A DNA stretch of 64,000 nucleotides from an uncultured marine group III euryarchaeote (GCA_902627615.1 CACOJW010000006.1:31204-95203), one strand, 5' to 3'. Positions 1-52,495 are shown, counted from the first letter of the stretch. Notes: generated by a model from the letters alone, not told the origin. Made by a program: numbers and translations.

Positions 1-3000
1 ATGAGGATGACATTAATTTGGGTAGTTCTTCTGTATACTCTATAGGTAATACATTCTCAACAGTTGTTGTATCAAGTGATTCCGTTTTGACTGTTAAATC
101 TTACATTGATATTGATGTTAATGATGCTTCAGGAGACAATATGAGCGGTATTGATATCAAAGTAATGGAGGATGATGTTCAAAAGTATGCAACCAGTTAC
201 TTTGGAGGCAATGATCCTAAAACAGATTCTTCAGGAACTATTGCAACTTTCTTAATTGATTCAAAGAAGTATGATGGCAGTTCCACTTCAGAATTAATAC
301 CCACCTATGTTTCAGCAAGGTATTATGATTGGGTTGAGACAAATTCTTTTGATTCAAGTAACACAATAACTGTTGAAGTTCCCGACTTACGAGTTCAAAA
401 TACTAGGACTGGAACGTTGACATACCATATACAAACGGCAATCGATAATGCAATAGAAGGAGATACGATAAGGGCATGGAATGGAACTTATTTTGAGAAT
501 ATTGAAGTTACAGAAGAATTGACAATTCTAGGTAACGGAACTTCTACAATAATCAATGGAGATAATGATACGGCAATTGAAATAGCAGAAGATAGTGTAA
601 CTATCAAAAATGTAATGATTGTATCTTCTGAAAAAGGAATATACCTTAATTCAATTGAAGATACGATTGTTGATAATGTTAAATTTACAACTAGTGAATA
701 TGGACTTTATTCAGAAGAAACACAGAATTTAGTTGTGAATAATAGCATATTTGATGTCGTAGATTATGGTATTTATCTAGCTTCAAGTTCAACAGTTAAA
801 ATCGAAGATAATGAGTTCCGCAATGGAACTCAAAATGGAGATTATTGTATTTATCAATCAGAATCTTCAGATAATGGAGGTGCTAGCATTGAAGATAATA
901 AATTCAATGATTGTAATGTAGCTTGGAGATCAGGAAGTGGAAGTAATACTTTTAGAGATAATAATTTGAAAGATAATGAGTATGGTGTGTTACTTTCAGG
1001 TACTGAAGCAAATAATAATTTATTACATGATAATAATTTTGATGATTCAGGGGTTGCAGTTTACATTTACAATACAGCTTATGATAACAACTTGTACAAC
1101 AACTACATAGATGATTCTGATGATTACGATATCAAATTGAGTGATTCATACGATACAGTTTCTTACAACAATACATTTTCATCTATTTCAGTAGCCTCAG
1201 ATGCAAACATGTGGATTAAAGTCTACATTGATGTAGATGTTACAGACAATTCAAGTAACGCTTTATCTAATGTTGATTTACAAATTAAGCAAGATGCTTT
1301 AGTTGTATATTCAACAGCATATTATGGTGGCAGTGATTCCAGAACTGACGTAACAGGCCAAATTGCAGAATTCTTAGTGGCGACATCTCTATATAATGGA
1401 AGTTCAACACCAACCTCAGTTACTACTGTAGTAAATGCACGTTACTCTGATTGGCTTTCCTCTGAAGCTTATAACATCAATAATGATGTTGACATTAAGG
1501 TCGATGATTTTAGAGTTAAAAATGATGATACAGATCAAATGTTTTATTCAATTAACGGTGCAATAAATGCAGCTTCTAATGGAGATACCTTACTCATTTG
1601 GGCCGGAACTTATTATGAAAATGTCTTACTTAACAAGGAATTAACATTAACGGGTAATGGCACATCATCTACAATCATTAACGGAAGTTATTCTGGTGAT
1701 GTTATTGCAGTAACAGCCGATGAAGTCTTAATTGAAAAATTAACAATTATTGGAAGCGGTTCTGGTAACTCAGGAATATTAGTAAGTGAAGGAGATAGTG
1801 TATTCACAGATTTGAGATTTGCAGATAATGATTATTCATACTACTCAGAAGGTGATTTCAACGAATTGTCTTTAAGCAGTATCTTAGATAGTAATTATGG
1901 GGCATTTGTAACGGGAGATAATAACATAATAAGTCAAAATACATTCTCTGAAAATGGCGTGTCTATTACGTTTTCATCAACCTCAGAGGATAGTAGGGCA
2001 AATAATAATGAAATTACAGATGGAACAGATACGGCCATACATTTGGCAGGTTCTGAAGAAACAACTATTAGGGATAACTATATTCATAATAATTCTGCAT
2101 ATGGAGTGAAATTAACAAACGATTCAGCAGATAATATCATTTATGATAACGACTTAGAATATAACTCAGAATTTTCATTACTAGTTGTAGCTTCGGGCAA
2201 TAATTCGATTCATAACAATACCTTCAAATCAAATGACGACGGTTCAGCTAAATTTGATTCATCATACTATAATGTATTCAGAGATAATGTGTTGAATGCA
2301 AATGATGATTACTTGTTACTTGAAGGCGGGGGTCAAAATAGTATTTCACACAATACCTTTACGGAGGATGGAATTTTAATTCAGAATTCTAATAATCAAA
2401 TAATTACAGGTAACACAATAACTGATGCACCAGATAATGGCATTAGAATCTTCAAGTCTAGCTCGAACAATTATCTGTCTGATAATTTAATTTCAGGTTC
2501 AGATGATGAAGACATATATGTTGGAGGAAGTGGTTCTCAGGTTAATAATAGAGGATTTAACAACTCATTTAATACGATTAAAGTTCAAGGTAACGGCGAG
2601 TTTGTAGTATTAGACTTCATAGGACTTAGAACCATTAATTCCGAGGGAAATATGTCCGGTAACGATGTTAAAGCTACATTTGGTTCATCTACTCTCTATG
2701 CTTCTAATTATTTCGGAGGTAACGATCCTGTTACAGACTCAAGTGGTTTGATTCCTGACTTTATTGCACCTATTGAAATTTATGACGGAAGTTCAACACC
2801 TACTAAGGTCATAACTCCAATGACAGTTAGGTTCTCGGATTGGACAGATACATTCAATTTAGATCCTTACAGTGGTTCCTCAATTACCGTATTTGTGCCT
2901 GAGTTGCGCGTTAAGAACCAAAATACTGGAGAATGGTCCTATTTGGTTCAAACGGCTATAGATGACGCAGGTGTTAATGACGTAATAATTCTATCAAATA

Positions 3001-6000
3001 GCACATATCGTGAGAACATAGTTGTAAATAAAGCAGGTGTAACTCTGCAGGGTCCATATTCAGATAGGCACAATCCCGGCGTCATTATCGATGCACAAAA
3101 TGATGGTTGTGCTATAACCGTAACAAAATCAGGAATTTATATCCTTGGACTTAATGTTACCAATTCTTTTGAGTCAGATTCTCCTTTCAATTCCTCAGCT
3201 ATACGCATAGTTTCGGACAATAATGAGATACGTTATAACAGAGTTACAAATTCGTATGTCGGAATATTGGCAGATAGTACCGATAATAATGAGATTATTG
3301 ACAATTCAATCGATGAGGTAGAAATAGGAATATTATTAACTAAATCTAACAGTAATCTTATTCATTCAAACTTTATAGATTCAGTTGATGAATATGATAT
3401 ACTACTTAGTAACGTAGGATATTCTACAGGTTCAAGTTATAATACAATAGAAGGAAACATAGATATTGATTCGATGCGGATTCATAATTCAGATAGTAAC
3501 TTCATAGTTAATTCTGAAACAATAACTGTTACTCTGTCTGATTCAGAAAGTATTTCTTCTGTAAACTCTACATTTGATTATGTGGTTTGTGATTCAGATT
3601 CTTCTCTTTATTTGAAAAATTATATGAATATAGAAGTTTCAAAACTAGGTTCTTCTTTAAAGAATGTAGATGTTAGAGTAAAGGATGGTAATAATACGTT
3701 CTATTCCACGCAGTATTTCGGCGGTAGTGATCCAAAGACTACTTCCTCCGGGTCCCTTCCGAACGACATTCTTGTAATCTATAGAGTCTATGATGGAAGT
3801 AGCTCTGGAACCGATAATGAAACTTCTGTAAAGGTACGCGTTGGCGATTGGTTTAAGTTATCAGACGATATAATTGAGGGGTATACAGTATTTGATTTCA
3901 ATGTTCCACATTTCAGAGTAGAGAATACGAATACAAACACAAAATATGCATACGTCCAAACTGCAATAGATAATGCTACAGCAGGCCATACTATCATATT
4001 GGAAGCAGGAATCTACCGTGAGAATATTCTCATTGATAAAGAATTGACACTTACAGGTGAAACAGTAACAGATGGAATTATGTGGGATGGAGTTCAAACC
4101 AGCGCAGGGTCAGTCCTTACGGTTGACAATTTAGGTGGTTTAGGTGCACCACCATTAGCAAATTCATCTAGAGCAGGAATTGCCATAGCTGCAAGCGATG
4201 TATCCATAACTAATTTAATTATTGCAAATTTCACACACGGTATTTCCATTGATGATTCCAGCGATACTGACATTAGTGATGTAATAATAATTAGAACTCA
4301 AGATACAGGAATTTCCATTACATCCTCAAATGGAGTTATTGTGTCTGAGTCTAAAATTATAGGTAAAGATACAACGGGAACTGGTATTTTAATAGAAGAA
4401 TCAGCTTCCTCAGTTAATTTAGTAAATCTAGAAGTTAGCTATTGCAGTATAGGAATTATTGTAGATGGAGAATATATCAGTGTAGATGCAGTTCAAATAC
4501 ACAGTAATAGTAATGATGGAATAAGAATTACGGCTACGTCTTCAGATATTGTAACTGCTAATAATGTTATACACAATAATGGAGGTAATGCGTTAGAAGT
4601 TTCAGGACTTACTTCAGGAAGTTTCTATGGCAATTTAATTTATAGCAATGGTAACACCGAATTCCGTATCATATCAAGTCACAAATTAGAAATATATGAT
4701 AATATTATTTCAGATCCAGAGTTCGGTTATGGAATTCATTTAACAGGCGGTAGTGATAATGAAATACATGACAACATACTACACGTTAGTACATGGTTAG
4801 ACGGATCAGATGGAACCTTGGTTTACGATAATGAATTTGTTAATATTACAGGCGGTTCAACAACTTATGACAATTCAGCACTCATAATTGCTTCTAGTAA
4901 TAATACAATGTCAGATAACACAATCGATAATGTAGGCGTTGCTTTTGCCTTCTTACCAATTAATGATCCAAACTATAATTTAGTTGAAAACAACACAATT
5001 AACATAGATTCGCTTCAAAAATCTATGGAATATTATACCTCTGGAATGAATAACACGTTCATTAACACAGAAATGTCGTATGTAGATATATCAGAAGACA
5101 GTTACTTTGAGATTCTCCAATACATTGATATTGAAATGAACACTGTATTAGGCTCAGCAAAAAATGTTGAGCTAGAAATTACAGAAGGTGATTCAGTCAT
5201 TTATGCAACAAACAGATATAATGGTTCAGATTCAAAGACCGATTCTTCAGGCCAAATTGAAAGGCTTTTCTTAGTTAGTGAAATTTATGATGGAGATTAT
5301 GTGGCAGACTACGTAGTTACGACTATGAAATATTATTATGATGGCGTTGAATATAATTCTGAAATTGACACAGATTCAAGCCATGAAGAAGTGATATGGG
5401 TAAATCTCAGACCTACAGCAGCTATTGATTCTGTAATTGGAATTGGAGATCTTTCAGCAAGTTCAAGTGAGGAAGCTGTCAAGGGAGCTGATTTGTTGAT
5501 TGTAGATGATAATACGATTGCTTATTGGCCATTTGATGAGGGTACTGGAGAGTTGATATTAGATAAAACTGGAGTTAATACGGGAACAATAAATTTCGGT
5601 GGTTGGCAGAGTGAAGGAAGGCCAAATGCAAGTGATTTAAATTCAGTTTATTTTGATGGTACTTATACAAACATAGATACAAGCCTTCTATTGATTGATC
5701 AGGATGAATTCACTCTTGAAGCCTGGTTCAATACAGATTCTACACAAACAATGACTATTGTTTCAGATAAAGATAATGAATTTCAATGGGGTCATAATCT
5801 TTACATTGAAGGTTTCCTCAAATTTGATTTTACAGTTGATGAAGGAACAGTAGTTAGTGTTAATTCAATATCTTCAGTTTCAGATGGAGAGTGGCACTTT
5901 GTTTCTGTCGTTCGAGGCCAAGATTATGTTGAACTATGGTTAGATGGAGAATTGGTAGATTCTCAATCTTGGTCAGGAGAGATAGACTATACTTCAAGCA

Positions 6001-9000
6001 CAATCCGTATAGGTCAAACAGCAGCTGGAGATCCATTGCCTTTCAAAGGACTAATTGATGATTTAAGATTCTCAAGCATCGCACGTCACCATGAAGACTT
6101 CATGACTGGTAGTGGTATTGTAGCATTCATTTCAGACTCCTTTGACGATGATGGCCAAATTATAGATTATATCTGGACTTCATCAAAAGATGGGGAGTTA
6201 GGACGTGGTTCGGTTCTGTATTATCCGGTTAACGATTTAAACGATGGTTCACACTCAATTGAGCTGTTAGTAATAGATAACAACGGTACAGTTTCAGATA
6301 GTGTTACTTCGACGTTATTGGTAATGCAAAGACCAGATTCAGAAATAGTGTATGTACGTGTTAATGATGAACCTGCAGCATGGGGTTGGGGAATTAATGT
6401 AAATAGTGGAGATGAAATTTCTTTCAAAGGTCAATCCGTCGGACAATTTATTATTCAATACTCTTGGGTTTCGGATTTAGAAGGTTCAATATTTGATGAG
6501 GGAGAATGTTCCAGTGACGATTCTTCAGTATGTGTCTCAGAATTTAAAACAGATGCCTTAGCAAATGGTACCCATTTCATCACTTTCAAGGTGCAGGCTG
6601 CTAATAGTTTATGGAGCCCTGAGCAAGTAATTGAAATTAGCGTTAATGGGCGGCCTGAAATTGGCGAAAATATCGAATCCACAGATGAATTCTTAGATAG
6701 ATTAAAATCAGCAATGTTTAGAGTTCCTATTGAAGATGATTCAACAGTAGGTAACGAATTAAGTTATGTTGTCGAATATAGAATCAAAGACAGTGATGAT
6801 GAATGGTCTAGTGATTACATAACTTCTAAAATATTTAACGGAGAAACAGGAAATCTTGAATTTGAGTTCAGTCCTGACGCTGAGGCAGAAGTCGGGGAAT
6901 ATGAATTCTTTATCGAAGTAACAGATGACACCGGAGGCGTCTCTGATTACTACATAATGAATCAAGGTATTACTGTTCAAAATAACATTCCAGAGATAAC
7001 AAATACTAATGTAGACGTTGATGGCGACGGAGAGCCAGATTCAGAACCAGTTTTCCAGGAAGGAGAACAAATTGAATTATCAATTGATACGGCAGATGAG
7101 GATGGCGATGTTTCTAACGTTACATGGTATATTGATTTAGATAAAGATGGTGAGATAGATAATGATGAAATAATTGGATATGGTTCTAGCCCAGCTAAAG
7201 AAGACATTGATTATTCGGTAATGACTGTGGGTGAAAACGAAGTTACAGTGGTGATTACAGATGATGATGGAGATACATCCCAAGACACATTCATCATTGA
7301 AATTACTGCAGCTCCAGTTGAGGAGAGCGCGGTTGAAGTTGTCCTAGAAAATTTCAGTAATAATTTACCTTTGATTGGAGGTTTAGCAGTAGGTATTGTA
7401 ATGATTCTAGGAACTCTTGCTTTAAGAAGAAATAGAGGCGATTCAGTAGGAGACATAGAAGTAATTCCAGATCCAACGGATGCAGCATCTGATAGGCCTG
7501 AGCAAGTTGTTGAAGACTGGGAAATTCCTACAGACGCTCAAGGTAATGCTTTGATTATTGGTGAGTACATGGCAAAACGCAGAGAAGCATACCTTACACA
7601 TCCAAATAATGAAGAGGTTCTTGATTATTTACATAATAACAGAGAGCGTTTTACGATATCATCATACTTTGATGTTCCAGCAGATCCAACAGTTGTCATT
7701 ACAGATTGGGCTTTGCCAGAAAATCTACGCGGTAATGTCCACCTTGATTCCTTCCGTCAACAGTTAGTTGAAAGAATAACAAACAGTACTCCAGACAAAA
7801 ATTTCGTTATTATCGGAGAACCGGGAGTCGGTAAGACAGTTATGCTCTTTGAAGTATTTGATAGGTTAATGTATAAATCTCCAGTAGGAATTCTATCTAC
7901 AGATACAATTGCTAAGGCTCACGAGATGTTTGGAGTTCGTGTTTTCTATGATGATATACCCGAGAATCAGAAATTAGTGGAAGCATTAACAGATAACGAA
8001 ATTTCAGGAGTGATCGTTACTTCAAGAGAAGCAGACTGGAAGGCTTTACCTACTGAAATGCAAGCTAAGTTTGATCGATTGACAGTTCCATTGTTCAGTG
8101 AGTTGGACATGAAGAAAATGATTGAGAAAATGATGACTTTCCAGAGTATTGGTTTCAATGATGAATCAGTAGATGTTCTGGCAGAATATGCAGAAGGCAG
8201 TCCTATCTACGTTTGGTCTATGGTAAGAGAAATGATGCATAGAAGCGTTAAGAGTTTATCAGCAGAATATATCAAAGAAAATTCTGTTAAAGGAATGATT
8301 AACTATGTTGCACAATTATTACAGAGGCTGCTCAAAGATGGTGAGGAATACCGTGATGGTGGTCTACATGCACTAGCATCTTTGATTTTCCTTTCAGACC
8401 ATATGGAAGAGCGTTATTGTAATGATTATTTCTTTGATGCATATGTTGAGGAGTTATCAAAACATACAGAAGAAAAATTAGGAGATAAGATGAATCCTAA
8501 GACCTTGAATTTAGTCTTGGCATATTTACCAATTAATGACAGTGTTATCAGATTCCCACACGATACTTGGCCAGATGTTTTACAAGGTTGGGGAGACATG
8601 AATCCATTCAGTACTGAATTAAGGATGATAAATCGTGCATTCGCAGATTCAGGACTTTTCCAAGATTTAAAGAAAGAAGTAGTAGCTGACGTTTGGAATT
8701 CAACTTACGAGAGATATAAGAGAACGCCATCTAGGCAGAAAAACTCTTTCTTGGCTTTAGCAGACACGTTATTCCAGAATTTCACAATTGATGAATTAAA
8801 GAAATTAGGAGTAGATATTGACATAGTCAGGCAAGTTGCTTCTACTTACTCACATATACCTCAGGCAGCTAAATTAATATCCAAGATTCAGGCAGTTTTA
8901 CCACAGACAGTTACAAGAATTATCAATATGCAAGACATTGACTCAGAGAAAGGTCATGTTCCTTACAAGATTCAAGAGATGTATCTCATTTACAATGATG

Positions 9001-10163
9001 GACGTATGATTTCCAGTCTAATGGATGAGGAAGCTAAAGTTGATTCAGATATCATGAGTAGTATGTTAACAGCAATCAATGATTTCGTTAAAGATTCTTT
9101 CCAAACTTCAGGTAATTTAGGTTCAATTGATTATGGAGAAAACCAGATTATATTAGAGAGAGGAAAGCATACAATTCTCGCATCAGTTGTATATGGTGAA
9201 GCAAATCGTGATTTGAGGTCTAGAATGGGTCGTGCTTTAACAAAGATTGAAGGTGATTACGGATCTAAGCTAAGAAGCTGGAATGGTGACGTAGATAGTC
9301 TAAGTGATTGTGTACAGTACTTGCAACCAGTTATGGACATGAGTAAGTCTGTGACTAAGGATATGATTGATGAATTGCAAGCCTTGAAAGATGTAAGTTT
9401 AAGATCAAGTTGGAGCCAAGTAGCAGGCTTTGTTCAAGTTAACTTGATGATTAACAATTATTCCAAAAAACAGCTCAAAGGCGCTAAATTAACTTTAGAA
9501 TATGGTGCAGATTTCCTTAAGCTGGTTAAGACAGAACCAGAGCTAAAAAATACAGTTACTGAAGTTGATATTAAGAAAGTTGGAGCTAATGATGAGATGG
9601 CTGTAACATTGTATTTCGAACCATTAAAATCTACACAGGCCTCTTTGAATGTTCACTTAGATTATGAATCCAAAGGTGGTCAATCATCTGGAGTTTCTAC
9701 TGCAGTCTTTGAGCGTGTTAATTTGTACAAAGAAGGTGCTTCTCTCAACTTGTCTGATCTTGATAATGCGTCCAAGGCCGAAATTATTTCAGAGTCAGTT
9801 CCAGCCGAAGTTGTTGAAGCAAGTGTGGAAGACGTTGAAGTTGCAGCCGAAGTTGTAGATGTAGTGGAAGATGTTTCTTCTGATGTCGAAGTTTTAGATA
9901 CAGTTGTTGAGGAAGCTGAAGCATTTGAAACAGAGGAAGAGCCTGAGGAAGAACCTAAGAAGAAATCTAAGAAAAAGGAGAAAGTCGAGGAAGCTCAGCA
10001 TGATGTTCCTGACCCTGGTGAATCAGGTGTTGATGATATAATGAGTAAATTAGGTGAATTGGATGATCCTGAAAATAAGCCTAAAAAGAAAGAAAAGAAA
10101 TCAAATGACGCTGAAGATCCAGAAGGTATGGACGATATCTTAGGCAAATTAGACGAATTATAG
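1..10163 (+). CDS. Giant single-pass membrane protein, 5'-partial (>3,385 aa). Ectodomain of repeated beta-sandwich + parallel beta-helix modules, a LamG-like block and PKD/Ig-like blocks; one TM helix; cytoplasmic STAND/NB-ARC-like P-loop NTPase, Roadblock/longin-like domain, beta-sandwich and charged tail.
   Basis: The frame is open from base 3 to the TAG at 10161-10163, and the window starts inside a repeat unit, so the N-terminus lies upstream. There are five diverged ~90-aa units (YIDIDVND..YFGGNDPKTDSSG..YDGSST). Four of them are followed by IQTAID-x-A-x-GDTI..GTY-x-ENI and Asn/Asp-rich ~22-aa pseudo-repeats. LamG-like block IAYWPFDEG..LIDDLRFS at ~5500-6090. TM LPLIGGLAVGIVMILGTLAL + RRNRG at 7365-7439. 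Walker A GEPGVGKT at 7815-7838, VRVFYDD at 7935-7955, VIVTSRE at 8010-8030. Confidence 0.85.
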   Translation, partial: EDDINLGSSSVYSIGNTFSTVVVSSDSVLTVKSYIDIDVNDASGDNMSGIDIKVMEDDVQKYATSYFGGNDPKTDSSGTIATFLIDSKKYDGSSTSELIPTYVSARYYDWVETNSFDSSNTITVEVPDLRVQNTRTGTLTYHIQTAIDNAIEGDTIRAWNGTYFENIEVTEELTILGNGTSTIINGDNDTAIEIAEDSVTIKNVMIVSSEKGIYLNSIEDTIVDNVKFTTSEYGLYSEETQNLVVNNSIFDVVDYGIYLASSSTVKIEDNEFRNGTQNGDYCIYQSESSDNGGASIEDNKFNDCNVAWRSGSGSNTFRDNNLKDNEYGVLLSGTEANNNLLHDNNFDDSGVAVYIYNTAYDNNLYNNYIDDSDDYDIKLSDSYDTVSYNNTFSSISVASDANMWIKVYIDVDVTDNSSNALSNVDLQIKQDALVVYSTAYYGGSDSRTDVTGQIAEFLVATSLYNGSSTPTSVTTVVNARYSDWLSSEAYNINNDVDIKVDDFRVKNDDTDQMFYSINGAINAASNGDTLLIWAGTYYENVLLNKELTLTGNGTSSTIINGSYSGDVIAVTADEVLIEKLTIIGSGSGNSGILVSEGDSVFTDLRFADNDYSYYSEGDFNELSLSSILDSNYGAFVTGDNNIISQNTFSENGVSITFSSTSEDSRANNNEITDGTDTAIHLAGSEETTIRDNYIHNNSAYGVKLTNDSADNIIYDNDLEYNSEFSLLVVASGNNSIHNNTFKSNDDGSAKFDSSYYNVFRDNVLNANDDYLLLEGGGQNSISHNTFTEDGILIQNSNNQIITGNTITDAPDNGIRIFKSSSNNYLSDNLISGSDDEDIYVGGSGSQVNNRGFNNSFNTIKVQGNGEFVVLDFIGLRTINSEGNMSGNDVKATFGSSTLYASNYFGGNDPVTDSSGLIPDFIAPIEIYDGSSTPTKVITPMTVRFSDWTDTFNLDPYSGSSITVFVPELRVKNQNTGEWSYLVQTAIDDAGVNDVIILSNSTYRENIVVNKAGVTLQGPYSDRHNPGVIIDAQNDGCAITVTKSGIYILGLNVTNSFESDSPFNSSAIRIVSDNNEIRYNRVTNSYVGILADSTDNNEIIDNSIDEVEIGILLTKSNSNLIHSNFIDSVDEYDILLSNVGYSTGSSYNTIEGNIDIDSMRIHNSDSNFIVNSETITVTLSDSESISSVNSTFDYVVCDSDSSLYLKNYMNIEVSKLGSSLKNVDVRVKDGNNTFYSTQYFGGSDPKTTSSGSLPNDILVIYRVYDGSSSGTDNETSVKVRVGDWFKLSDDIIEGYTVFDFNVPHFRVENTNTNTKYAYVQTAIDNATAGHTIILEAGIYRENILIDKELTLTGETVTDGIMWDGVQTSAGSVLTVDNLGGLGAPPLANSSRAGIAIAASDVSITNLIIANFTHGISIDDSSDTDISDVIIIRTQDTGISITSSNGVIVSESKIIGKDTTGTGILIEESASSVNLVNLEVSYCSIGIIVDGEYISVDAVQIHSNSNDGIRITATSSDIVTANNVIHNNGGNALEVSGLTSGSFYGNLIYSNGNTEFRIISSHKLEIYDNIISDPEFGYGIHLTGGSDNEIHDNILHVSTWLDGSDGTLVYDNEFVNITGGSTTYDNSALIIASSNNTMSDNTIDNVGVAFAFLPINDPNYNLVENNTINIDSLQKSMEYYTSGMNNTFINTEMSYVDISEDSYFEILQYIDIEMNTVLGSAKNVELEITEGDSVIYATNRYNGSDSKTDSSGQIERLFLVSEIYDGDYVADYVVTTMKYYYDGVEYNSEIDTDSSHEEVIWVNLRPTAAIDSVIGIGDLSASSSEEAVKGADLLIVDDNTIAYWPFDEGTGELILDKTGVNTGTINFGGWQSEGRPNASDLNSVYFDGTYTNIDTSLLLIDQDEFTLEAWFNTDSTQTMTIVSDKDNEFQWGHNLYIEGFLKFDFTVDEGTVVSVNSISSVSDGEWHFVSVVRGQDYVELWLDGELVDSQSWSGEIDYTSSTIRIGQTAAGDPLPFKGLIDDLRFSSIARHHEDFMTGSGIVAFISDSFDDDGQIIDYIWTSSKDGELGRGSVLYYPVNDLNDGSHSIELLVIDNNGTVSDSVTSTLLVMQRPDSEIVYVRVNDEPAAWGWGINVNSGDEISFKGQSVGQFIIQYSWVSDLEGSIFDEGECSSDDSSVCVSEFKTDALANGTHFITFKVQAANSLWSPEQVIEISVNGRPEIGENIESTDEFLDRLKSAMFRVPIEDDSTVGNELSYVVEYRIKDSDDEWSSDYITSKIFNGETGNLEFEFSPDAEAEVGEYEFFIEVTDDTGGVSDYYIMNQGITVQNNIPEITNTNVDVDGDGEPDSEPVFQEGEQIELSIDTADEDGDVSNVTWYIDLDKDGEIDNDEIIGYGSSPAKEDIDYSVMTVGENEVTVVITDDDGDTSQDTFIIEITAAPVEESAVEVVLENFSNNLPLIGGLAVGIVMILGTLALRRNRGDSVGDIEVIPDPTDAASDRPEQVVEDWEIPTDAQGNALIIGEYMAKRREAYLTHPNNEEVLDYLHNNRERFTISSYFDVPADPTVVITDWALPENLRGNVHLDSFRQQLVERITNSTPDKNFVIIGEPGVGKTVMLFEVFDRLMYKSPVGILSTDTIAKAHEMFGVRVFYDDIPENQKLVEALTDNEISGVIVTSREADWKALPTEMQAKFDRLTVPLFSELDMKKMIEKMMTFQSIGFNDESVDVLAEYAEGSPIYVWSMVREMMHRSVKSLSAEYIKENSVKGMINYVAQLLQRLLKDGEEYRDGGLHALASLIFLSDHMEERYCNDYFFDAYVEELSKHTEEKLGDKMNPKTLNLVLAYLPINDSVIRFPHDTWPDVLQGWGDMNPFSTELRMINRAFADSGLFQDLKKEVVADVWNSTYERYKRTPSRQKNSFLALADTLFQNFTIDELKKLGVDIDIVRQVASTYSHIPQAAKLISKIQAVLPQTVTRIINMQDIDSEKGHVPYKIQEMYLIYNDGRMISSLMDEEAKVDSDIMSSMLTAINDFVKDSFQTSGNLGSIDYGENQIILERGKHTILASVVYGEANRDLRSRMGRALTKIEGDYGSKLRSWNGDVDSLSDCVQYLQPVMDMSKSVTKDMIDELQALKDVSLRSSWSQVAGFVQVNLMINNYSKKQLKGAKLTLEYGADFLKLVKTEPELKNTVTEVDIKKVGANDEMAVTLYFEPLKSTQASLNVHLDYESKGGQSSGVSTAVFERVNLYKEGASLNLSDLDNASKAEIISESVPAEVVEASVEDVEVAAEVVDVVEDVSSDVEVLDTVVEEAEAFETEEEPEEEPKKKSKKKEKVEEAQHDVPDPGESGVDDIMSKLGELDDPENKPKKKEKKSNDAEDPEGMDDILGKLDEL
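96..5410 (+). repeat. Five-fold modular protein-level repeat inside the giant gene (beta-sandwich unit followed by a beta-helix stretch)
   Basis: Unit starts near 96, 1212, 2602, 3607 and 5107. Each has the motif series hYhDh-V....h.V.h....YaT.YFGG.D..TDSSG.h..fh....YDGSS. The copies are diverged at DNA level; no long identical repeats were seen. Confidence 0.7.
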
Positions 10164-10166
10164 AAA

Positions 10167-10242
10167 TGGTGCGGGTGCCGGGATTTGAACCCGGGTTCCA
10201 AACTTGGCAAGCTTGAGTGATACCAGGCTACACCACACCCGC
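10167..10242 (-). tRNA. tRNA-Gly (anticodon GCC), CCA encoded
   Basis: The reverse complement folds as a cloverleaf. Acceptor GCGGGTG/CACCCGC, anticodon stem CAAGC/GTTTG, loop TTGCCAA, T-arm CCGGG-TTCAAAT-CCCGG, discriminator A, then CCA. Confidence 0.92.
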
Positions 10243-10581: not shown

Positions 10582-11502
10582 ATGTCGGATAATCAAACAG
10601 AAGAAAGCCTTTCTGAAGCATGGAACGAAAATAGATTTCCAATCTTAGCATTAGCTCTTTGTTTTGTCATTGCTCATATTACTGCAATGTACATGGTTCC
10701 TGCTTATGAGGAAGCTGAAGTCCAGGCTTTTGAGGATCCAGATGACCCCACAAATTCGGCATACTACATTGGAATAATTCTCGTTTTTACAGCTTTTATT
10801 TTGTGGATTGCAAAGCAAAATCTTGACTGGGTATTGCAGGGAATTTTCTTGACAGCAATTGGAACCACTTTCATTTATGTGTTTTATCCGTTTTTTAATA
10901 GCTACGGAATAGAAGGTTTTGCAGGATATGTCGGTGCAACGGCATTTGCAGTACAATTAACATTTCTTTTGGTTTCATATCCTGAATGGTATGTTATAGA
11001 TCTCTCAGGAGTTATTCTTGCAGCAGGTGTATCTGCTATTTTTGGAATATCTTTTGGACTTTTACCTGCTTTACTTCTTCTTACAGGTTTGGCGATTTAT
11101 GATGCTTGGGCAGTTTATCGTACAGGGCACATGGTGGATTTAGCAGATTCAGTTATGGATCTTAAATTGCCAATTTTACTAGTAATGCCCAAATCGTGGG
11201 ATTACTCATTCTTAAAACAGGGAAGTCTGAATGAGCAGATTGAATCAGGTGAAAAGAGAGGGGCTCTTTTCATGGGATTAGGTGATTTAGTGATACCTGG
11301 AGCTCTAGTTGTATCATCCAAATCGGCTTTGGGATGGTCAGTTGGTTTAGCTACCATGGTTGGTAGTTTGGCAGGTTTCTTTATTTTGATGATATACGTG
11401 CTTAGTGGAAGACCACAGGCCGGTTTACCCTTATTGAATGGTGGAGCAATTTTGGGATATTTCGTCGGAGCATTTCTCTTCGCTGGCGAATTAGGATTAT
11501 GA
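10582..11502 (+). CDS. Presenilin / signal-peptide-peptidase-like intramembrane aspartyl protease (family A22)
   Basis: Polytopic membrane protein with the YD motif (LAIYDAW), the GxGD motif (FMGLGDLVIPG) and a PAL-like motif (GLPLLNGG), in the canonical order. Confidence 0.75.
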   Translation: MSDNQTEESLSEAWNENRFPILALALCFVIAHITAMYMVPAYEEAEVQAFEDPDDPTNSAYYIGIILVFTAFILWIAKQNLDWVLQGIFLTAIGTTFIYVFYPFFNSYGIEGFAGYVGATAFAVQLTFLLVSYPEWYVIDLSGVILAAGVSAIFGISFGLLPALLLLTGLAIYDAWAVYRTGHMVDLADSVMDLKLPILLVMPKSWDYSFLKQGSLNEQIESGEKRGALFMGLGDLVIPGALVVSSKSALGWSVGLATMVGSLAGFFILMIYVLSGRPQAGLPLLNGGAILGYFVGAFLFAGELGL

Positions 11503-19392: not shown

Positions 19393-22317
19393 ATGGCAGA
19401 CCCTGTAGATAGCGGAGGCCGGCGTTATGTCGTTCTAGCAGTAGTCATTATGCTATTGGCAGCTTTGCCTTTTTCTCCACTAGTTTCATTCAAGTCATCT
19501 CAGCATATTGATTCTCAATCAGCAACTACAGATTCGAATCTTCCCACTAAGGACAGTGATAACGATGGAATGCCAGATTGGTGGGAAATGGATTTTGGTT
19601 TAGATCCATATGATGCTTCAGATGCAGCACTAGATTCGGACAGTGATGGGCACGATAAGAATAGAAATGGCATTTTAGAAGTGGAAGAATATTTTACTAA
19701 TTTAATGGAATATGAAATGGACTTGGTAATAGGTAATAGTACGAATCCAATTGAAAGAGACACAGATAAGGATGGAATGCCGGACGGCTGGGAAGTTTAC
19801 TACAATTTAAATCCACAATATTTCCCAGACGGTGATGAGGATAATGACGAAGATGGATATGATGTTAATCGTGATTTGTATCTTAGCGCAGATGAAAAAC
19901 ATACTAATTTAGAGGAATATCTTGCAGGAACAAGTCCCTGGGAATACGATACAGATAGTGACACTATGCCCGATGGGTGGGAATTATTCTATGGATTAGA
20001 TCCGTTAATGTCTGCAGATGCCTGGTATGATACAGATGCTGATGGTTGGGATGCGAATTTTAATTCAGAGTTAGAATACGAAGAGAGATATTTCAATTAC
20101 ATGGAATATTACAATGATACTAATCCACTCATAGCAGATACAGACGGTGATACTATGCATGATGGTTGGGAAGTCTATTTTGGTTTAGAACCCCTTAGAG
20201 CTTCAGACAATTTTGAAGATAAAGAAGCAGATGGCTTGCCTAATGTTTATGAATATAATAACAGTCTAGTGAACACGGGATGGGTAGATAATGACGGTAT
20301 ATTCACCACTCGTCCAGACTACAATGATACAGATGAAGATACAATTTCAGATAACGATGAATTATTCATTTATTTGACGGATCCCACATCGAATGATACA
20401 GATGGAGATGGGATGCCCGACGGTTGGGAAATAGAGTACGGTCTGAATCCAATTTCAGCATTAGATGCAGCATATGACTCAGACAATGATGGTTGGGATT
20501 TTAACAGAAATTTCAATATAAGTGGTGATGAGTTATTTACTAATCTGGAAGAGTATCTTAACGGAACTGACCCTTCGAATAATGATACTGACGGAGATGG
20601 TATGCCTGATGGTTGGGAAGGATATTATGGGCTTCAACCGACAGATCCTTCTGATGCAAATCAAGATTTCGATGGAGATGGCTATGATATCAACCGAGAC
20701 GGCTTCATTTCATCTTCAGAGAGATTTAGTAATTATGAAGAATTCAAAAATGAAACAGCTCCAAATAATAATGACACAGATAATGATGGCATGTGGGATG
20801 GATGGGAAGTTTATTACGGTTTAAATCCTCTAGATGCTTTCGACGCAACAGTTGATAATGATGAAGACGGTTTCGATGCTAACTATAATGGAACTTTAGA
20901 GGAAGATGAAGAGCACAACAATATTCTTGAATTCCAGGCAGATACACATCCCTACATTGAGGATACAGATGCAGATGGAATGCTAGATGGATGGGAATGG
21001 CTTTATGGTTTAAATCCATTAAATCCTTTAGATGCAAATGCAGATAGTGATAATGACGGGGTAATTAATCGTCTAGAATATAACAACAGTGCAGCAGGAC
21101 CTTACATTGAAGTTGACAACATAACTTCATCGATGCCCAACAATAATGATACTGACGGCGACGGGCTTTTGGATGGCCAAGAATTATTCGTACATCTTAC
21201 AGATCCAACACATCCAGATACAGATGGAGATGGGATGCCAGATGGTTGGGAAGTCAAATATGGATTAAATCCATTAGATTCTGAAGACGCTTTGCTTGAT
21301 ACAGATAACGATAGTTTTGATTCAGATTGGAATGATAATCTAACTGAATCTGAGATATATGCAAACTTATACGAATATTTGAACGGTACAGACCCTACTA
21401 ACGGAGATACGGATAACGATGGAATGTCTGATGGATGGGAAGTCTTTTGGGGCTTTCAGCCATTGAATTCTAGTGATGCTACCGATGATCCTGACAATGA
21501 TTCACTTATCAATCTCTATGAATTTGATAATTCAAGAGTTGAAGGGTTTGATGATAACGTTTACAGCATTGATAATATTACAGGTTCCAATCCTCTTTTG
21601 AGAGACACGGACGCAGACCTGATTAGTGATGGCGAAGAATGTGTTTTTGGCGAAGATGGTTATGTTACGGATCCGTCAAATCCAGACTCAGATGGAGATG
21701 GAATGCCAGATGGCTGGGAAATGTTACATGGGTTGGATCCTTTCGATCCAAGTGATGGCGAATTAGATTCAGATAACGATGGTTGGGACTTTGATAGAAA
21801 CGGAACTGTAGAGCAATGGGAAAAATTTACTAATTACGAAGAATATCTGAATGGTACTGATCCAAACAATAACGATACAGACGGCGACGGTATGGTTGAT
21901 GGTTGGGAAGGTTATTACGGATTAAATCCTAGGTCTGTAGAAGACAGAGATTGGGATTCAGATGGAGATGGTTATGATTCCAACGGTGATGGTGAACTTT
22001 CACCCGATGAGAAATTCACTAATTTTGAGGAATATTTGATGAATACAAATCCTGTTAAAGCTGATACTGATGGAGATAACTGTACCGATGGATGGGAAAT
22101 ATATTGGAACGATAATAAGCCTGCAGATGAGAACAGGACCTTAGATCCATTAGATGGAATAGATGGCTTCTTAGATTATGATGAAGATGGCTGGGAAGAT
22201 TGGGAAGGCGTACAGTATAACTTCCCTAATTGGCGCGAGGAACAAGCCAACACTAATCCTTGGGATCCCGATACAGATGATGATGGAATGACAGATGGTT
22301 TCGAGGCGGATAACTAA
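19393..22317 (+). CDS. Secreted or anchored acidic protein built from ~14 thrombospondin-type-3-like Ca-binding repeats (DTDxDGMPDGWE-x2-YGLNP)
   Basis: N-terminal hydrophobic helix (YVVLAVVIMLLAALPF) followed by ~55-65-aa units, each with a DxDxDGxxDxxE loop, YGLNPLD and TNLEEY. It ends inside a unit (DTDDDGMTDGFEADN*). Confidence 0.8.
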   Translation: MADPVDSGGRRYVVLAVVIMLLAALPFSPLVSFKSSQHIDSQSATTDSNLPTKDSDNDGMPDWWEMDFGLDPYDASDAALDSDSDGHDKNRNGILEVEEYFTNLMEYEMDLVIGNSTNPIERDTDKDGMPDGWEVYYNLNPQYFPDGDEDNDEDGYDVNRDLYLSADEKHTNLEEYLAGTSPWEYDTDSDTMPDGWELFYGLDPLMSADAWYDTDADGWDANFNSELEYEERYFNYMEYYNDTNPLIADTDGDTMHDGWEVYFGLEPLRASDNFEDKEADGLPNVYEYNNSLVNTGWVDNDGIFTTRPDYNDTDEDTISDNDELFIYLTDPTSNDTDGDGMPDGWEIEYGLNPISALDAAYDSDNDGWDFNRNFNISGDELFTNLEEYLNGTDPSNNDTDGDGMPDGWEGYYGLQPTDPSDANQDFDGDGYDINRDGFISSSERFSNYEEFKNETAPNNNDTDNDGMWDGWEVYYGLNPLDAFDATVDNDEDGFDANYNGTLEEDEEHNNILEFQADTHPYIEDTDADGMLDGWEWLYGLNPLNPLDANADSDNDGVINRLEYNNSAAGPYIEVDNITSSMPNNNDTDGDGLLDGQELFVHLTDPTHPDTDGDGMPDGWEVKYGLNPLDSEDALLDTDNDSFDSDWNDNLTESEIYANLYEYLNGTDPTNGDTDNDGMSDGWEVFWGFQPLNSSDATDDPDNDSLINLYEFDNSRVEGFDDNVYSIDNITGSNPLLRDTDADLISDGEECVFGEDGYVTDPSNPDSDGDGMPDGWEMLHGLDPFDPSDGELDSDNDGWDFDRNGTVEQWEKFTNYEEYLNGTDPNNNDTDGDGMVDGWEGYYGLNPRSVEDRDWDSDGDGYDSNGDGELSPDEKFTNFEEYLMNTNPVKADTDGDNCTDGWEIYWNDNKPADENRTLDPLDGIDGFLDYDEDGWEDWEGVQYNFPNWREEQANTNPWDPDTDDDGMTDGFEADN

Positions 22318-22900
22318 TGCATAACTTGATGCAATACCTTTATTTACGAGTAAAAGGATTTCTACGCGTAGGTGAAGCATGTTAGTGAAGCAAGTTATTG
22401 CATTGTTTTTAGTCGTTTTAATGCTAATTTCACCTCTGACCACCTTGTCAGTTACGGCAGATATGGATCCAGATGAAGATAACGATTTAGATGGTTATGA
22501 TGCCAACAGAGATGGAATTCTATCTGACGATGAAAAATACACTAATTTAGAGGAATATTACAACAATACTAATCCTAATGATGAAGATACCGATGATGGA
22601 GGAGCGTGGGATGGTTGGGAAGTTTATTATGGATTTAATCCACGTATCTCTTCGGATGATTCTCTTGATTCAGATAGTGATTCTCTTATTAACAGCCTAG
22701 AGTTTTTTTGGGATGCAGATCCATTTAGTTCAGACACAGACCAGGATGGGATGCCTGACGGTTGGGAAGATACATACTCAGATAGACTGCCAGAAGGTTG
22801 TGGTCTTAATCCAACAATTTCAAGTGATAAATTTGGTGATCCAGATGGAGATGGATCCGATAATTTGAGGGAGTATCAAGAGGGAACCAATCCTTGTGAT
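19540..22900 (+). repeat. Coding tandem repeats (DGWE / TSP3-like units) spanning the 974-aa gene and the first ~170 codons of the next gene
   Basis: Recurrent DNA blocks such as gatacagatggagatgggatgccagatggttgggaa near 20398, 20587, 21229, 21689 and 21886. The copies are imperfect. Confidence 0.8.
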
Positions 22901-28333: not shown

Positions 28334-28334
28334 C

Positions 28335-30628: not shown

Positions 30629-30636
30629 TATAGCAA

Positions 30637-52419: not shown

Positions 52420-52495
52420 GCCCGGATGGTGTAGCTTGGAATCACAGAAGCCTGCGGAGCTTCAAACCCGGGTTCGAATCCCGGTCTGGGCGCCA
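52420..52495 (+). tRNA. tRNA-Arg (anticodon GCG), CCA encoded
   Basis: Acceptor GCCCGGA/TCTGGGC, anticodon stem GAAGC/GCTTC, loop CTGCGGA, T-arm CCGGG-TTCGAAT-CCCGG, discriminator G, then CCA. Confidence 0.92.

Follow-up and report, generated by a model that had tools for sequence, protein, structure and literature searches.

A giant archaeal surface protein predicted to carry a STAND-type NTPase module behind a single membrane helix

The DNA analysed here is a window of 64,000 nucleotides from an uncultured marine group III euryarchaeote (GCA_902627615.1, CACOJW010000006.1:31204-95203). The reading frame at its start is predicted to encode the C-terminal portion, ~80% in all, of a type I membrane protein that exceeds 4,200 aa and belongs to a Marine Group III (Thermoplasmatota/Poseidoniia) archaeon. 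The protein looks like a receptor, with a surface ectodomain, one transmembrane (TM) helix and a cytoplasmic NOD module of the STAND type. This domain anatomy, taken alone, can be held with high confidence. The whole explanation, anatomy and mechanism together, is the best one available and is offered tentatively, as plausible without yet being probable.

Gene and reading frame

Frame 3 is free of stops from window position 3 to 10163 on the forward strand, which gives 3,386 codons before the terminal stop; the window contains no start codon for it. A frame of this length does not arise by chance in DNA of about 35% G+C. A preliminary description of the window had reported one uninterrupted frame through 10163 with the N-terminus outside. 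The translation agrees, and every motif coordinate given there is exact.

The orthologous frames are longer, with at least 4,206 codons in locus L005 and at least 4,209 in L007, both still open at the 5' end. Orthologous loci lengthen the frame by ~820 aa on the N-terminal side. Since all of them are open 5', neither a signal peptide nor the N-terminus of the query protein was recovered from them. The N-terminal 333 aa of L005, used as a protein search query, had no match at E<=1e-30. A contig scan with the generic pattern IIGEPGVGK found at least 8 loci.

The order of ectodomain, membrane helix and tail is colinear across the helix in 11 independently assembled protein fragments. On a single-amplified-genome contig, one HSP of 3,332 nt runs across the TM segment, and the L005 and L007 frames are colinear with the query through the same junction. 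Judged by this colinearity, the fusion of ectodomain and NTPase is genuine. The orthologues with a matching TM and NTPase tail that the preliminary description had proposed to look for are thus present, and the chimeric join it had named as a risk does not appear.

Identity among orthologues is 27-70% in the ectodomain and 72-96% in the cytoplasmic part (NOD module 87-96%, C-terminal domains 72-90%), with the step exactly at the TM helix. The two sides are therefore under differing selective regimes, with strong purifying selection on the cytoplasmic part.

The alternative is an artefact: a chimeric assembly or a decaying pseudogene, in which ectodomain and NTPase are really separate proteins. 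One distant MAG (L002) does have its ectodomain ORF overlapping its TM-NTPase ORF in a different frame, and some database proteins, for example P0010, start at the module. Given the length of the stop-free frame, the colinear fragments, contig and orthologous frames, and the purifying selection on the tail, such an artefact is barely credible.

Table 1 Predicted features of the reading frame. Positions are window nucleotides unless marked aa.
Feature	Position	Strand	Basis or remark
5'-truncated ORF	3..10163	+	stop-free translation; orthologous ORFs in L005, L007 longer
Repetitive ectodomain core	69..5342	+	Pfam Beta_helix, NosD; internal phmmer repeats
Beta-sandwich modules, ~100 aa, n=5	aa 23-134, 396-510, 877-975, 1198-1311, 1697-1780	+	local phmmer
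Right-handed beta-helix blocks, n=4	aa 139-392, 511-860, 980-1195, 1318-1690	+	local phmmer, Pfam
LamG / concanavalin-A-like lectin domain	5655..6095 (aa 1885-2031)	+	Pfam Laminin_G_3 1.4e-18, Laminin_G_2 1.2e-8
About four candidate acidic Ig/PKD-like modules, membrane-proximal	6120..7322 (aa ~2040-2440)	+	Big_13, Big_7 on orthologous fragments; weak internal similarity
Single TM helix LPLIGGLAVGIVMILGTLAL	7365-7424 (aa 2455-2474)	+	sole strongly hydrophobic segment; N-out/C-in
Acidic, Pro-containing juxtamembrane linker, variable	7425..7511 (aa 2475-2503)	+	poor conservation among orthologues
Conserved pre-NBD region (module aa 1-95)	7512..7796	+	three helices and alpha-0 helix; AF2 pLDDT 80-95
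P-loop nucleotide-binding domain (NBD)	7797..8096	+	five-strand ASCE core in AF2 model; Foldseek AAA+/STAND matches
Walker A GEPGVGKT	7815-7838	+	motif; G102-K108 invariant in A1
Walker B VRVFYDD	7935-7955	+	motif; D147, D148 invariant in A1
Sensor-1 VIVTSRE	8010-8030	+	motif; R172 invariant in A1
Beta-5 DRLTVPLF	8073-8096	+	within NBD
Helical lid (HD1) with GxP motif	8100..8240; GSP 8196-8204, EGSPIYVW from 8193	+	G229, S230, P231 invariant in A1
Winged-helix-like alpha/beta domain (WHD)	8262..8582	+	AF2 alpha/beta region; ends FPHD (8553-8564) then TWxDVL
Helical domain HD2, module end	8610..8897; boundary about 8936-8957	+	AF2 helices 367-462
Longin/roadblock-like alpha/beta domain (beta-beta-alpha-beta-beta-beta-alpha)	8958..9275	+	AF2 model m51364ead645a
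Helical connector	9291-9386	+	AF2
Eight-strand Ig-like beta-sandwich	9393-9722	+	AF2, Foldseek
Acidic tail	9783..10160 (126 aa)	+	composition, net charge -29
Amphipathic motif, copy 1 GVDDIMSKLGEL	10026-10061	+	repeat of conserved motif
Amphipathic motif, C-terminal copy GMDDILGKLDEL	10125-10160	+	protein end

Ectodomain and membrane topology

The ectodomain is rich in Asn, Asp, Ser and Thr. Its five beta-sandwich modules alternate with four NosD-like beta-helices, followed by a LamG domain and then an Ig-like region. Pfam Beta_helix matches 10 stretches of the query (4e-60, 202 bits, cutoff 25.9) and NosD scores 3e-50 (171 bits, cutoff 23.6), so multiple parallel beta-helix repeats lie above threshold, which is the Pfam criterion for right-handed beta-helix surface proteins. 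The NCBIfam model NosD_copper_fam reaches 4e-64, under its own cutoff. The beta-sandwich, beta-helix and LamG parts of the earlier description are thereby confirmed. Its PKD/Ig-like label stands only in part: the Pfam scan of the query gave no Ig/PKD match over aa ~2040-2440, but precomputed Big_13 and Big_7 matches on the orthologous fragments P0009 and P0023, together with the sequence pattern, suggest modules of this kind.

The ectodomain is probably a binding or adhesion surface. It resembles the giant beta-helix/Ig adhesins of bacteria and archaea in its building blocks (beta-helix/NosD-like, LamG, Ig-like), its size and its fast divergence. Adhesins of this sort usually terminate in a simple anchor; the query instead bears about 910 aa of highly conserved cytoplasmic machinery.

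Scanned in 19-mers, the entire product has one strongly hydrophobic segment, the TM helix (Kyte-Doolittle 2.24; next best 1.44, within a beta-helix). As had been described, a single hydrophobic helix is directly followed by RRNRG (7425-7439). An Arg or Lys immediately follows the helix in all 14 single-pass TM homologues examined, in the positive-inside manner, and P0024 is a complete paralogue with signal peptide, ectodomain, TM helix and module. Both observations favour the orientation proposed earlier, in which the tail should be cytoplasmic. The module contains no hydrophobic segment; the TM helix lies entirely upstream. The linker between them is probably flexible or disordered. In other TM members of the family it is 24-88 aa long and often rich in Pro and Ala.

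The NTPase module

The module is ~480 aa long and sharply bounded: in 97 of 120 homologues (the complete carriers) its edges fall at query positions 1-5 and 474-482. By these boundaries it is a discrete evolutionary unit. The AF2 model (pLDDT 86.7) contains an NBD, a lid, a winged-helix-like domain and a helical domain. Model and Foldseek search together recover the NTPase fold that the preliminary description had claimed for the tail. The STAND series it had recognised (P-loop, hhhhDD, hhhT(T/S)R, GxP) is in place, and distant relatives pass Pfam nSTAND3 and have canonical architectures of NOD with WD40 or TPR.

In alignment A1, which covers the close family, the invariant residues of the pre-NBD region are W3, P6, Y27, N33, H41, N42, Y52, F53, W66, R73, D79 and R82 (module numbering), the last two on the alpha-0 helix. 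In Walker A these are G102, G105, G107 and K108, and in the winged-helix-like domain F348, P349, H350, D351, W353 and D355. P231 of the lid is invariant in A1, A2 and A4. Distant relatives, at 17-27% identity, keep D147, R172, P231, H350 and D355; D147, R172, H350 and D355 are invariant there too, R172 in 54 relatives. The FPHD of the query presumably corresponds to the MHD motif of NB-ARC proteins and the LHD of Apaf-1. In STAND NTPases, the WHD histidine of this MHD/LHD type contacts the nucleotide.

The query itself falls below the Pfam cutoffs (AAA_16 23.1 bits vs 32.6; nSTAND3 18.4 vs 27.2). In an alignment of 55 distant relatives, 53 members match nSTAND3 at E<=0.01, 13 match NACHT and 10 match NB-ARC (best 1.9e-4). 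When ten relatives were scanned singly, eight scored 28.0-32.0 bits with nSTAND3 and two scored 25.4 and 27.1 (cutoff 27.2). In some distant relatives, WD40, PQQ or TPR domains follow at the C-terminus. A C-terminal repeat sensor is typical of STANDs, though not universal. The query clade has no such sensor (TPR, WD40, LRR); in it the longin-like domain, the sandwich and the tail come after the module instead.

The nearest curated family is nSTAND3 (PF20720), the NTPase of Avs5, which has the P-loop, hhhhDD and TxR series in common with the query. Foldseek aligns the query model to EfAvs5 (9jap) at E 4.8e-6. Unlike Avs5, the query lacks a SIR2 or other N-terminal effector and a C-terminal TPR sensor, is tethered to the membrane behind a giant ectodomain, and has neither a defence-island context nor a PADLOC Avs5 match. 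The AP-ATPases or NB-ARC proteins (Apaf-1, plant NLRs) have their motifs in the same order as the query: P-loop, hhhhDD, hhhT(S/T)R, hxhxxL..E after beta-5, GxP and the winged-helix His-Asp. We take GSPL and LHDLQVDFL of Apaf-1 to be the counterparts of GSPI and PHDTWxDVL in the query. Apaf-1 and some distant relatives of the module also both end in WD40 propellers. The NB-ARC matches in the relatives are weak, however, and there is none on the query, which further differs in its distinctive conserved ~95-aa pre-NBD region, its membrane tether and its lack of a CARD, TIR or CC effector.

By sequence and by fold, the separation between STAND and RuvB-like AAA+ proteins is not absolute. In the Foldseek search with the module model, EfAvs5 is in sixth place and NLRP2 in fourteenth, with ClpC, RuvB, RFC and FtsH ranked among them; every one of these AAA+ and STAND matches falls at E about 1e-6 to 1e-5, with TM(query) near 0.3. 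Against PDB sequences, profiles A1, A2 and A4 (HD1-WHD only) matched no STAND chain; they matched the Clp/Hsp104 P-loop, RuvB (2e-9), DnaA and Cdc6. The wider family's NBD profile matches RuvB of T. maritima best among PDB sequences, at 2e-9, and also DnaA, Cdc6 and IstB. RuvB and the clamp loaders share with the query the three-domain layout of NBD, helical lid and winged helix (Foldseek TM(target) 0.41-0.51), and the lid of the query family aligns weakly to that of RuvB, with GTPR at the equivalent place.

An AAA+-type ring motor stays a rival because the query is under the Pfam cutoff of every STAND model and the wider family's NBD finds its best PDB sequence relative in RuvB. Such a RuvB/clamp-loader-like motor would sit at the membrane and act on the giant protein itself or on some partner, for instance during secretion, extraction or remodelling. 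The invariant R189 of the close family (A1), just before beta-5, would suit this, as its position is, we assume, comparable to the RuvB arginine finger. Yet distant relatives conserve R172, P231 and H350 but not R189. The query lid has no sensor-2 Arg after the Pro of GxP (GSPI, where RuvB has GTPR), the His and sensor-1 Arg signatures are STAND-like, and the gene has no DNA-related context. With the nSTAND3, NACHT and NB-ARC matches of the relatives and their occasional WD40/TPR sensor architectures added, a ring motor is highly unlikely.

Two other identities were considered. The ORC/Cdc6-like alternative of the preliminary description is rejected: TIGR02928 gives 16.4 bits against a cutoff of 181.3, over the P-loop only. 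The name 'Cdc6-like' given to P0032 by JGI is a generic COG label. KAP and YobI-Tmn proteins are, like the query, P-loop NTPases working at the membrane. Tmn is described in a passage of PMC13001434 as a characterised membrane-associated defence NTPase, and KAP NTPases, in a passage of PMC8195603 that cites Aravind et al. 2004, as having TM segments set inside the NTPase domain. Membership of the KAP group is rejected for the query, whose module is uninterrupted, with the only TM helix some 30 aa upstream of it, and whose ectodomain is very large.

C-terminal domains

Behind the module the AF2 model (mean pLDDT 79.8; 61-68 over residues 21-60 of the longin-like domain) has a longin-like domain and an Ig-like sandwich. 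For the longin-like domain the top Foldseek matches are AP-1/2/3 mu subunits and COPI delta, at E 1e-7 but with TM <=0.31. AP mu subunits and COPI delta have a longin domain at the N-terminus. The core of the domain, MLTAINDFVxDSF, is highly conserved. The sandwich matches the gamma-adaptin ear and the GGA appendage, with TM(target) 0.57-0.60 and an rmsd of 3.2-3.4 A over ~115 residues. Taken together, the two domains match AP mu subunits and adaptin ears at E 1e-7 to 1e-4; whole-chain TM is <=0.31 and only the sandwich superposes well. The Pfam scan had no match on this region. SDR-type matches (adh_short and similar) at tail aa ~750-835, in the beta-sandwich/acidic region, are weak, far under cutoffs, and were set aside as noise.

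The acidic tail that follows is probably disordered. Homologues down to ~40% identity keep a conserved motif, GMDDxLGKLDEL, at their extreme C-terminus, and some of them have two or three copies. As a lead only, we take xDDLLGKLDEL to match the L-x-x-(R/K)-L-x-x-L spacing of the ESCRT-III MIM1-type helix. The MIM1 consensus, (D/E)xxLxxRLxxL(K/R), lies at the C-terminus and binds MIT domains.

The longin and sandwich unit also occurs directly behind a TM helix, with no NTPase, in P0176, and possibly as stand-alone proteins in P0163 and P0165, which come from short contigs. Because it is present without the NTPase, it behaves as an independent interaction module.

Family and genomic neighbourhood

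Marine Thermoplasmatota (MGII/MGIII) carry the NOD module widely, behind N-termini that are membrane-bound or soluble. In P0024-26 and P0030 it is joined to a signal peptide, a WD40/PKD ectodomain and a TM helix, in P0027 to an 8-TM DUF805 domain, and in P0035 to a PLD-like domain. In most family members it is joined to a coiled coil and a CARDB domain. Since most members are soluble, the core function of the module needs no membrane or ectodomain. Being common in marine metagenomes, the family is uncharacterised and not rare. Within the window, phmmer with the full-length ORF as query retrieved no paralogue from the 37 further ORFs of >=100 aa listed.

The neighbours are a tRNA, a presenilin-type peptidase, an Lhr helicase, ThiF and PolD, which are housekeeping genes held in common only through general synteny. 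No conserved partner gene was found in the neighbourhoods examined, and Pfam on 30 other ORFs of the window gave housekeeping and secreted proteins, with no defence island. The peptidase gene, of the presenilin/SPP family, adjoins at 10582-11502 (PF06550, 7e-78). Regulated intramembrane proteolysis by this neighbour was considered and rejected. Only close relatives that are syntenic in general (L001, L005, L008) share this adjacency, which is absent beside the WD40-ectodomain paralogue P0024 (L003, L004); it is taken to reflect synteny, not a functional link.

PADLOC found nothing significant on the query (best Nhi, 2.8e-4, P-loop only). On relatives it gave only weak matches at the level of the P-loop (mad8, PDC-S73; Avs5 in 2 of 55). 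Membership of a known anti-phage system is accordingly rejected for both.

Function

The preliminary description had suggested an outside-in sensor or a nucleotide-controlled surface structure, and the fusion may be either. The most likely function would be that of a membrane-tethered NOD receptor working by clustering. As the linker is short, variable and probably disordered, signalling would depend on proximity rather than on a conformational change being passed on. A multivalent ligand, such as a particle, a polysaccharide, another cell or a virus, would bind several ectodomains and cluster the receptors. The raised local concentration of NOD modules would then favour nucleotide exchange and ATP-dependent oligomerisation. 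The assembled longin and sandwich domains, with the peptide motifs, could form a multivalent platform that recruits cytosolic partners. Ligand binding, direction of signalling, oligomerisation and partner recruitment are all proposals drawn from the sequence.

The same anatomy would serve a protein controlled from the inside out, in which nucleotide-dependent oligomerisation of the NTPase clusters, positions, anchors or turns over the surface protein and the ectodomain is the output. Examples might be adhesive patches, or coupling to a cytoplasmic scaffold through the longin and sandwich domains and the tail motif. A flexible linker fits clustering driven from within equally well, the longin and sandwich unit of P0176, a TM surface protein, suggests a general role as cytoplasmic anchor, and P0027 joins the module to multi-pass membrane domains. 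However, characterised STAND modules are ligand-triggered switches, soluble paralogues bear the module without any surface protein, and no cytoskeletal or scaffold gene is linked. On balance, control from within is somewhat unlikely. A surface guard of immunity has a different set of arguments: the hypervariable ectodomain would be a virus receptor or decoy, and the tethered STAND would sense engagement or damage and start an Avs-like defence. The nSTAND3 affinity and the EfAvs5 match point this way, as do the much faster divergence of the ectodomain than of the tail, and the PLD-like domain of the paralogue P0035, of a kind used as effector. The PADLOC results and the housekeeping neighbourhood speak against it. 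So do the lack of a recognisable death effector in the query protein, and a gene that is syntenic and conserved across MGIII genomes and not patchy. A guard function is quite doubtful for these reasons.

The clustering receptor can also be drawn further, as a prokaryotic 'transmembrane NLR'. Engagement of the ectodomain by a virus, grazer or particle would lead, by clustering, to an ATP-dependent NOD signalosome under the membrane. This would recruit effectors through the longin/appendage-like domains and MIM1-like helices, for example a MIT-domain or AAA+ membrane-remodelling machine. In this extended form the proposal is speculative and unlikely.

Precedent and significance

To our knowledge, in every domain of life STAND/NLR proteins are regarded as sensors that act in the cytosol. 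For prokaryotic STANDs, a recent systematic survey places recognition "inside cells", and the word "extracellular" is absent from its main text. The preliminary description knew of no characterised protein with the present layout, and no prokaryotic ectodomain-TM-STAND protein is described in the literature searched; the layout is uncharacterised in any prokaryote. In oysters, predicted proteins join a Cys-rich ectodomain and a TM helix to DED/TRADD-N and sometimes STAND NTPases (PMC8195603). These resemble the query in layout, as do receptor kinases and Toll-like receptors, single-pass receptors whose signals arise by induced proximity: an ectodomain is followed by one TM helix and then, in the cytoplasm, by a signalling domain that oligomerises. 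They are, however, eukaryotic, and their ectodomains and adaptor domains are not homologous to those of the query.

The ~480-aa module and the portable unit of longin, sandwich and tail are good structural and biochemical targets, because they can be expressed without the ectodomain.

What emerges is a family conserved in MGII and MGIII, among abundant uncultured marine archaea, in which a NOD-type module directly follows a membrane anchor, itself preceded by a giant, fast-evolving ectodomain. In its paralogues the place of that ectodomain is taken by a WD40/PKD ectodomain, by multi-pass membrane domains or by soluble domains. Were the module a clustering-driven switch, it would be a simple route, in one polypeptide, from surface recognition to an intracellular oligomeric platform, and a new class of architecture for STAND signalling. 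It would also open a way to study how planktonic archaea perceive particles, neighbours or viruses. Should the transmembrane NLR prove true, STAND immunity or signalling would reach the cell surface in one polypeptide, among the ocean's most abundant archaea.

Reading frame and genomic setting

Bases 3 to 10163 of the window, on the forward strand, translate as a single frame of 3,386 codons, without stops until the final TAA. The preliminary description had this frame run uninterrupted from base 1; uninterrupted it is, but it lies in frame 3. No start codon for it was found inside the window. The motif positions given at that time were all recovered on the translated product and are part of the table below. 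The TM helix is the sole strongly hydrophobic 19-residue stretch of the product (Kyte-Doolittle 2.24), in agreement with the single helix first described.

The window also encodes an archaeal RNase P RNA, the PolD large subunit, an Lhr helicase and ThiF, so this is ordinary archaeal chromosome. None of the 37 other window ORFs of at least 100 aa is a paralogue of the giant ORF. Among the matches listed, the nearest relatives come from MAG and SAG contigs labelled marine group III euryarchaeote, Candidatus Poseidoniia/Poseidoniales or Thermoplasmatota. A search for orthologues sharing the TM+NTPase tail had been suggested earlier, and they are indeed present in such marine archaeal contigs.

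Features of the window
Feature	Position	Strand	Remark
TM helix LPLIGGLAVGIVMILGTLAL	7365-7424	+	giant ORF; followed by RRNRG
Walker A GEPGVGKT	7815-7838	+	giant ORF motif
VRVFYDD	7935-7955	+	giant ORF motif
VIVTSRE	8010-8030	+	giant ORF motif
EGSPIYVW	from 8193	+	giant ORF motif
tRNA-Gly(GCC)	10167-10242	-	convergent to giant ORF, starts 3 nt past its stop codon
Presenilin/signal-peptide-peptidase family intramembrane aspartyl protease	10582-11502	+	PF06550, 7e-78; directly downstream of giant ORF
MoxR AAA+ ATPase	29630-30628	+	in surface/MoxR gene run
DUF58	30637-31884	+	in surface/MoxR gene run
Archaeal RNase P RNA	48142-48431	-	211 bits
tRNA-Arg(GCG)	52420-52495	+	
Subtilase (S8), 1,050 aa	52527-55679	+	with CARDB, Big_7, PKD domains

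Ectodomain, membrane helix and NTPase in one protein

The fusion of ectodomain, TM helix and NTPase that was first proposed from this one sequence recurs elsewhere. Eleven fragments of the protein, taken from independent assemblies at ENA, JGI and NCBI, stay colinear with the query across the TM helix, on its ectodomain side and its NTPase side alike. Contig AG-343-J07, from a single-amplified genome, aligns to window 5189-8503 in one HSP of 3,332 nt at 84% identity. Two orthologous loci, L005 and L007, hold unbroken ORFs of at least 4,206 and at least 4,209 codons that are still open upstream. These lengthen the protein by about 820 aa, and the mature protein is therefore longer than 4,200 aa; even with this extension the N-terminus was not recovered. 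A chimeric join of ectodomain and NTPase is effectively excluded.

At a distant MAG locus (L002, 117-7824) the two halves lie in separate frames, with the ectodomain ORF at 117-4364 overlapping the TM-NTPase ORF at 4225-7824; either the gene is truly split there or sequencing introduced a frameshift.

The nucleotide for P-loop NTPases is cytoplasmic. An Arg/Lys cluster directly follows the helix in the 14 single-pass TM family members examined, and in the complete paralogue P0024 a signal peptide at the N-terminus and a WD40/PKD ectodomain precede the TM helix, beyond which lies the NOD module. N-out/C-in is the only sensible topology predicted for the giant protein, which agrees with the cytoplasmic tail foreseen in the preliminary description.

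Pfam assigns aa 1885-2031 of the query (counted from the first codon in the window) to a LamG domain and recognises right-handed beta-helix/NosD repeats as well (4e-60 and 3e-50). Internal comparison of the query adds five beta-sandwich modules of about 100 aa, which alternate with four beta-helix blocks. These three kinds of module had all been described before. The Ig/PKD label for aa 2040-2440 has its basis in Big_13 and Big_7 matches on orthologous fragments, but Pfam did not recover such a domain there on the query itself.

Between orthologues, ectodomain identity is 27-70% (in 100-aa windows), against 72-96% from aa 2501 onward and 87-96% for the NOD module alone. The step coincides exactly with the TM helix, and thus selection is very different on the two sides of the membrane. 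Judging from these identities, the predicted cytoplasmic part is under strong constraint.

The NTPase module

In homologue searches the NOD module is sharply bounded at ORF aa 2504-2985, and it is complete in 97 of the best 120 matches. Its N-terminal partners vary. The majority of the best 120 have a coiled coil and a CARDB-like sandwich without TM; 18 have an ectodomain and one TM helix, among them the query clade and WD40/PKD forms. Other partners are an eight-TM DUF805 domain (P0027), a PLD-like domain (P0035) or almost nothing (P0062).

A 33-sequence alignment of the module contains a conserved pre-NBD region of about 95 aa. Invariant are G102xPGVGK108, D147 and D148, R172 and E173 of the TSRE motif, G229, S230 and P231, and F348, P349, H350 and D351 (module numbering). 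The AlphaFold2 model made from this alignment is confident (pLDDT 86.7): the five-strand P-loop core is followed by a lid of helices with the GSP motif, a winged-helix-like alpha/beta region up to FPHD, and another helical domain. In a Foldseek search of the PDB, AAA+ proteins (ClpC, RuvB, RFC, FtsH) and STANDs (EfAvs5 ranked sixth, NLRP2 fourteenth) both come up, with E about 1e-6 and a TM(query) of about 0.3, meaning core-only matches. The NTPase fold sought in the tail is there, in that the P-loop core is recovered by both programs.

In paralogues without the longin extension (P0026, P0041, P0046, P0062, P0081) the module ends in two or three short repeats, for example INIQDSVISRSNIG...DSIVNRS, of which the query retains INMQD alone. 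With their hexapeptide-like spacing, these repeats may form a short oligomerisation motif, either beta-helical or made of beta-strands.

Two module-bearing contigs, L010 and L011, are labelled bacterial MAGs (Neomarinimicrobiota, Rhodospirillaceae). Since they are short and close to archaeal sequences, binning contamination is likelier than transfer.

STAND or AAA+

Out of 1.84 billion representatives, a profile search picked 334 relatives, and 54 distant ones were aligned. At 17-27% identity, these retain exactly D147 (Walker B), R172 (sensor 1), P231 (GxP motif), and H350 and D355 (the His-Asp in the winged-helix region). When Pfam matches are tallied over the 55 alignment members (the 54 relatives and the query module), nSTAND3 is found in 53, AAA_16 in 43, nSTAND5 in 27, NACHT in 13, TPR in 12 and NB-ARC in 10. 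Scanned singly, eight of ten relatives score above the nSTAND3 gathering score of 27.2 (28.0-32.0 bits) and two just under it (25.4, 27.1); in three of the ten, a WD40 or PQQ propeller follows the NOD C-terminally. The NTPase of Avs5 is an nSTAND3. PMC13581612 covers roughly 90 STAND families.

The module is quite probably a STAND-class NOD, nearest to nSTAND3. There is a residual possibility that it is a RuvB-like AAA+ relative: the best match of the wider family's profile to PDB sequences is T. maritima RuvB (2e-9, NBD only), a profile of the lid and winged-helix region alone matched no solved STAND there, and the query itself stays under every threshold of the curated Pfam STAND profiles. 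However, GSPI in the family aligns with GTPR of the RuvB lid, so the AAA+ sensor-2 arginine is absent. R189, a possible arginine finger, is conserved in the close family only.

The motif series was initially compared to both NB-ARC/STAND and ORC/Cdc6-like ATPases. The STAND motifs hold up, but Orc1/Cdc6 membership is rejected (16.4 bits vs 181.3). KAP membership is also rejected, because the TM lies outside the NTPase domain and none is inside it.

The C-terminal extension

What follows the module is specific to the query clade. AlphaFold2 models residues 2986-3265 (pLDDT 79.8) as three elements: a longin/roadblock-type domain (beta-beta-alpha-beta-beta-beta-alpha), a helical connector and an eight-stranded Ig-like sandwich. 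The top Foldseek matches are AP-1/2/3 mu subunits and COPI delta (E 1e-7 to 1e-6), together with the appendage sandwiches of gamma/alpha-adaptin and GGA. Whole-chain TM-scores are at most 0.31, and a good superposition is limited to the sandwich (TM(target) about 0.6, rmsd about 3.3 A). On these models, the likeness to adaptor subunits is read as a fold-level resemblance only.

The longin-like and sandwich unit also sits right behind the TM helix of another surface protein without NTPase (P0176), and in short, possibly stand-alone proteins (P0163, P0165) whose contigs are short and which may be fragments. It is therefore a portable module. All three proteins end in a related acidic helix motif.

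The last 126 aa of the giant protein are acidic (net charge -29) and contain two copies of G(V/M)DDI(M/L)xKLxEL, at window 10026-10061 and 10125-10160, the second being the extreme C-terminus. Conservation of this motif at the C-terminus extends to homologues of about 40% identity, and some have three copies. The L-x-x-K-L-x-x-L spacing within it presumably resembles that of the ESCRT-III MIM1 helix.

Neighbouring genes

The convergent tRNA-Gly is kept in four orthologous loci (L001, L005, L007, L008). The presenilin-type peptidase stays adjacent in close relatives and is missing beside the WD40-type paralogue; this adjacency follows general synteny, and regulated intramembrane proteolysis by the peptidase was rejected.

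A gene run at 19393-31884 (+) encodes a TSP3-repeat protein (974 aa), an Ig/CarboxypepD_reg/DUF4129 protein (1,984 aa) and DUF4350 besides MoxR and DUF58. It is a Bat/MoxR-type cluster adjoining a second giant surface protein. The subtilase probably acts as a secreted protease, of the kind typical for marine Thermoplasmatota that degrade protein.

Possible function and precedents

The juxtamembrane linker measures 24-88 aa across TM members, is poorly conserved, and is acidic or Pro/Ala-rich. A linker of such composition is unlikely to carry a defined conformational change. Given this variable, Pro/acid-rich linker, the best-supported model is a tethered NOD that responds to proximity. From the observed anatomy we infer every functional step: multivalent engagement of the ectodomains would cluster the receptors, clustering would promote nucleotide exchange and oligomerisation of the NOD modules, and the longin/sandwich domains and tail motifs would then offer a multivalent docking surface.

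In the main rival reading the direction is turned round, and the NTPase would cluster or anchor an adhesin. A defence role, as a surface guard, is less likely than the proximity-responsive NOD; PADLOC matched neither the query nor its relatives significantly to any defence-system model. Less likely too is an AAA+ motor, a reading that would draw on the RuvB match and has the lid sequence against it.

Avs proteins with TM effector domains are known, as are membrane-associated conflict NTPases, which include KAP/Tmn (Tmn in PMC13001434) and iSTAND systems with TM segments. Some predicted oyster proteins combine an ectodomain, a TM, DED/TRADD-N domains and sometimes STAND NTPases (PMC8195603). 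The literature searched contained no description of a prokaryotic ectodomain-TM-STAND protein, as the preliminary description had supposed for this layout. It is thus a new architecture of a known protein class, and one that is widespread in abundant uncultured marine archaea.
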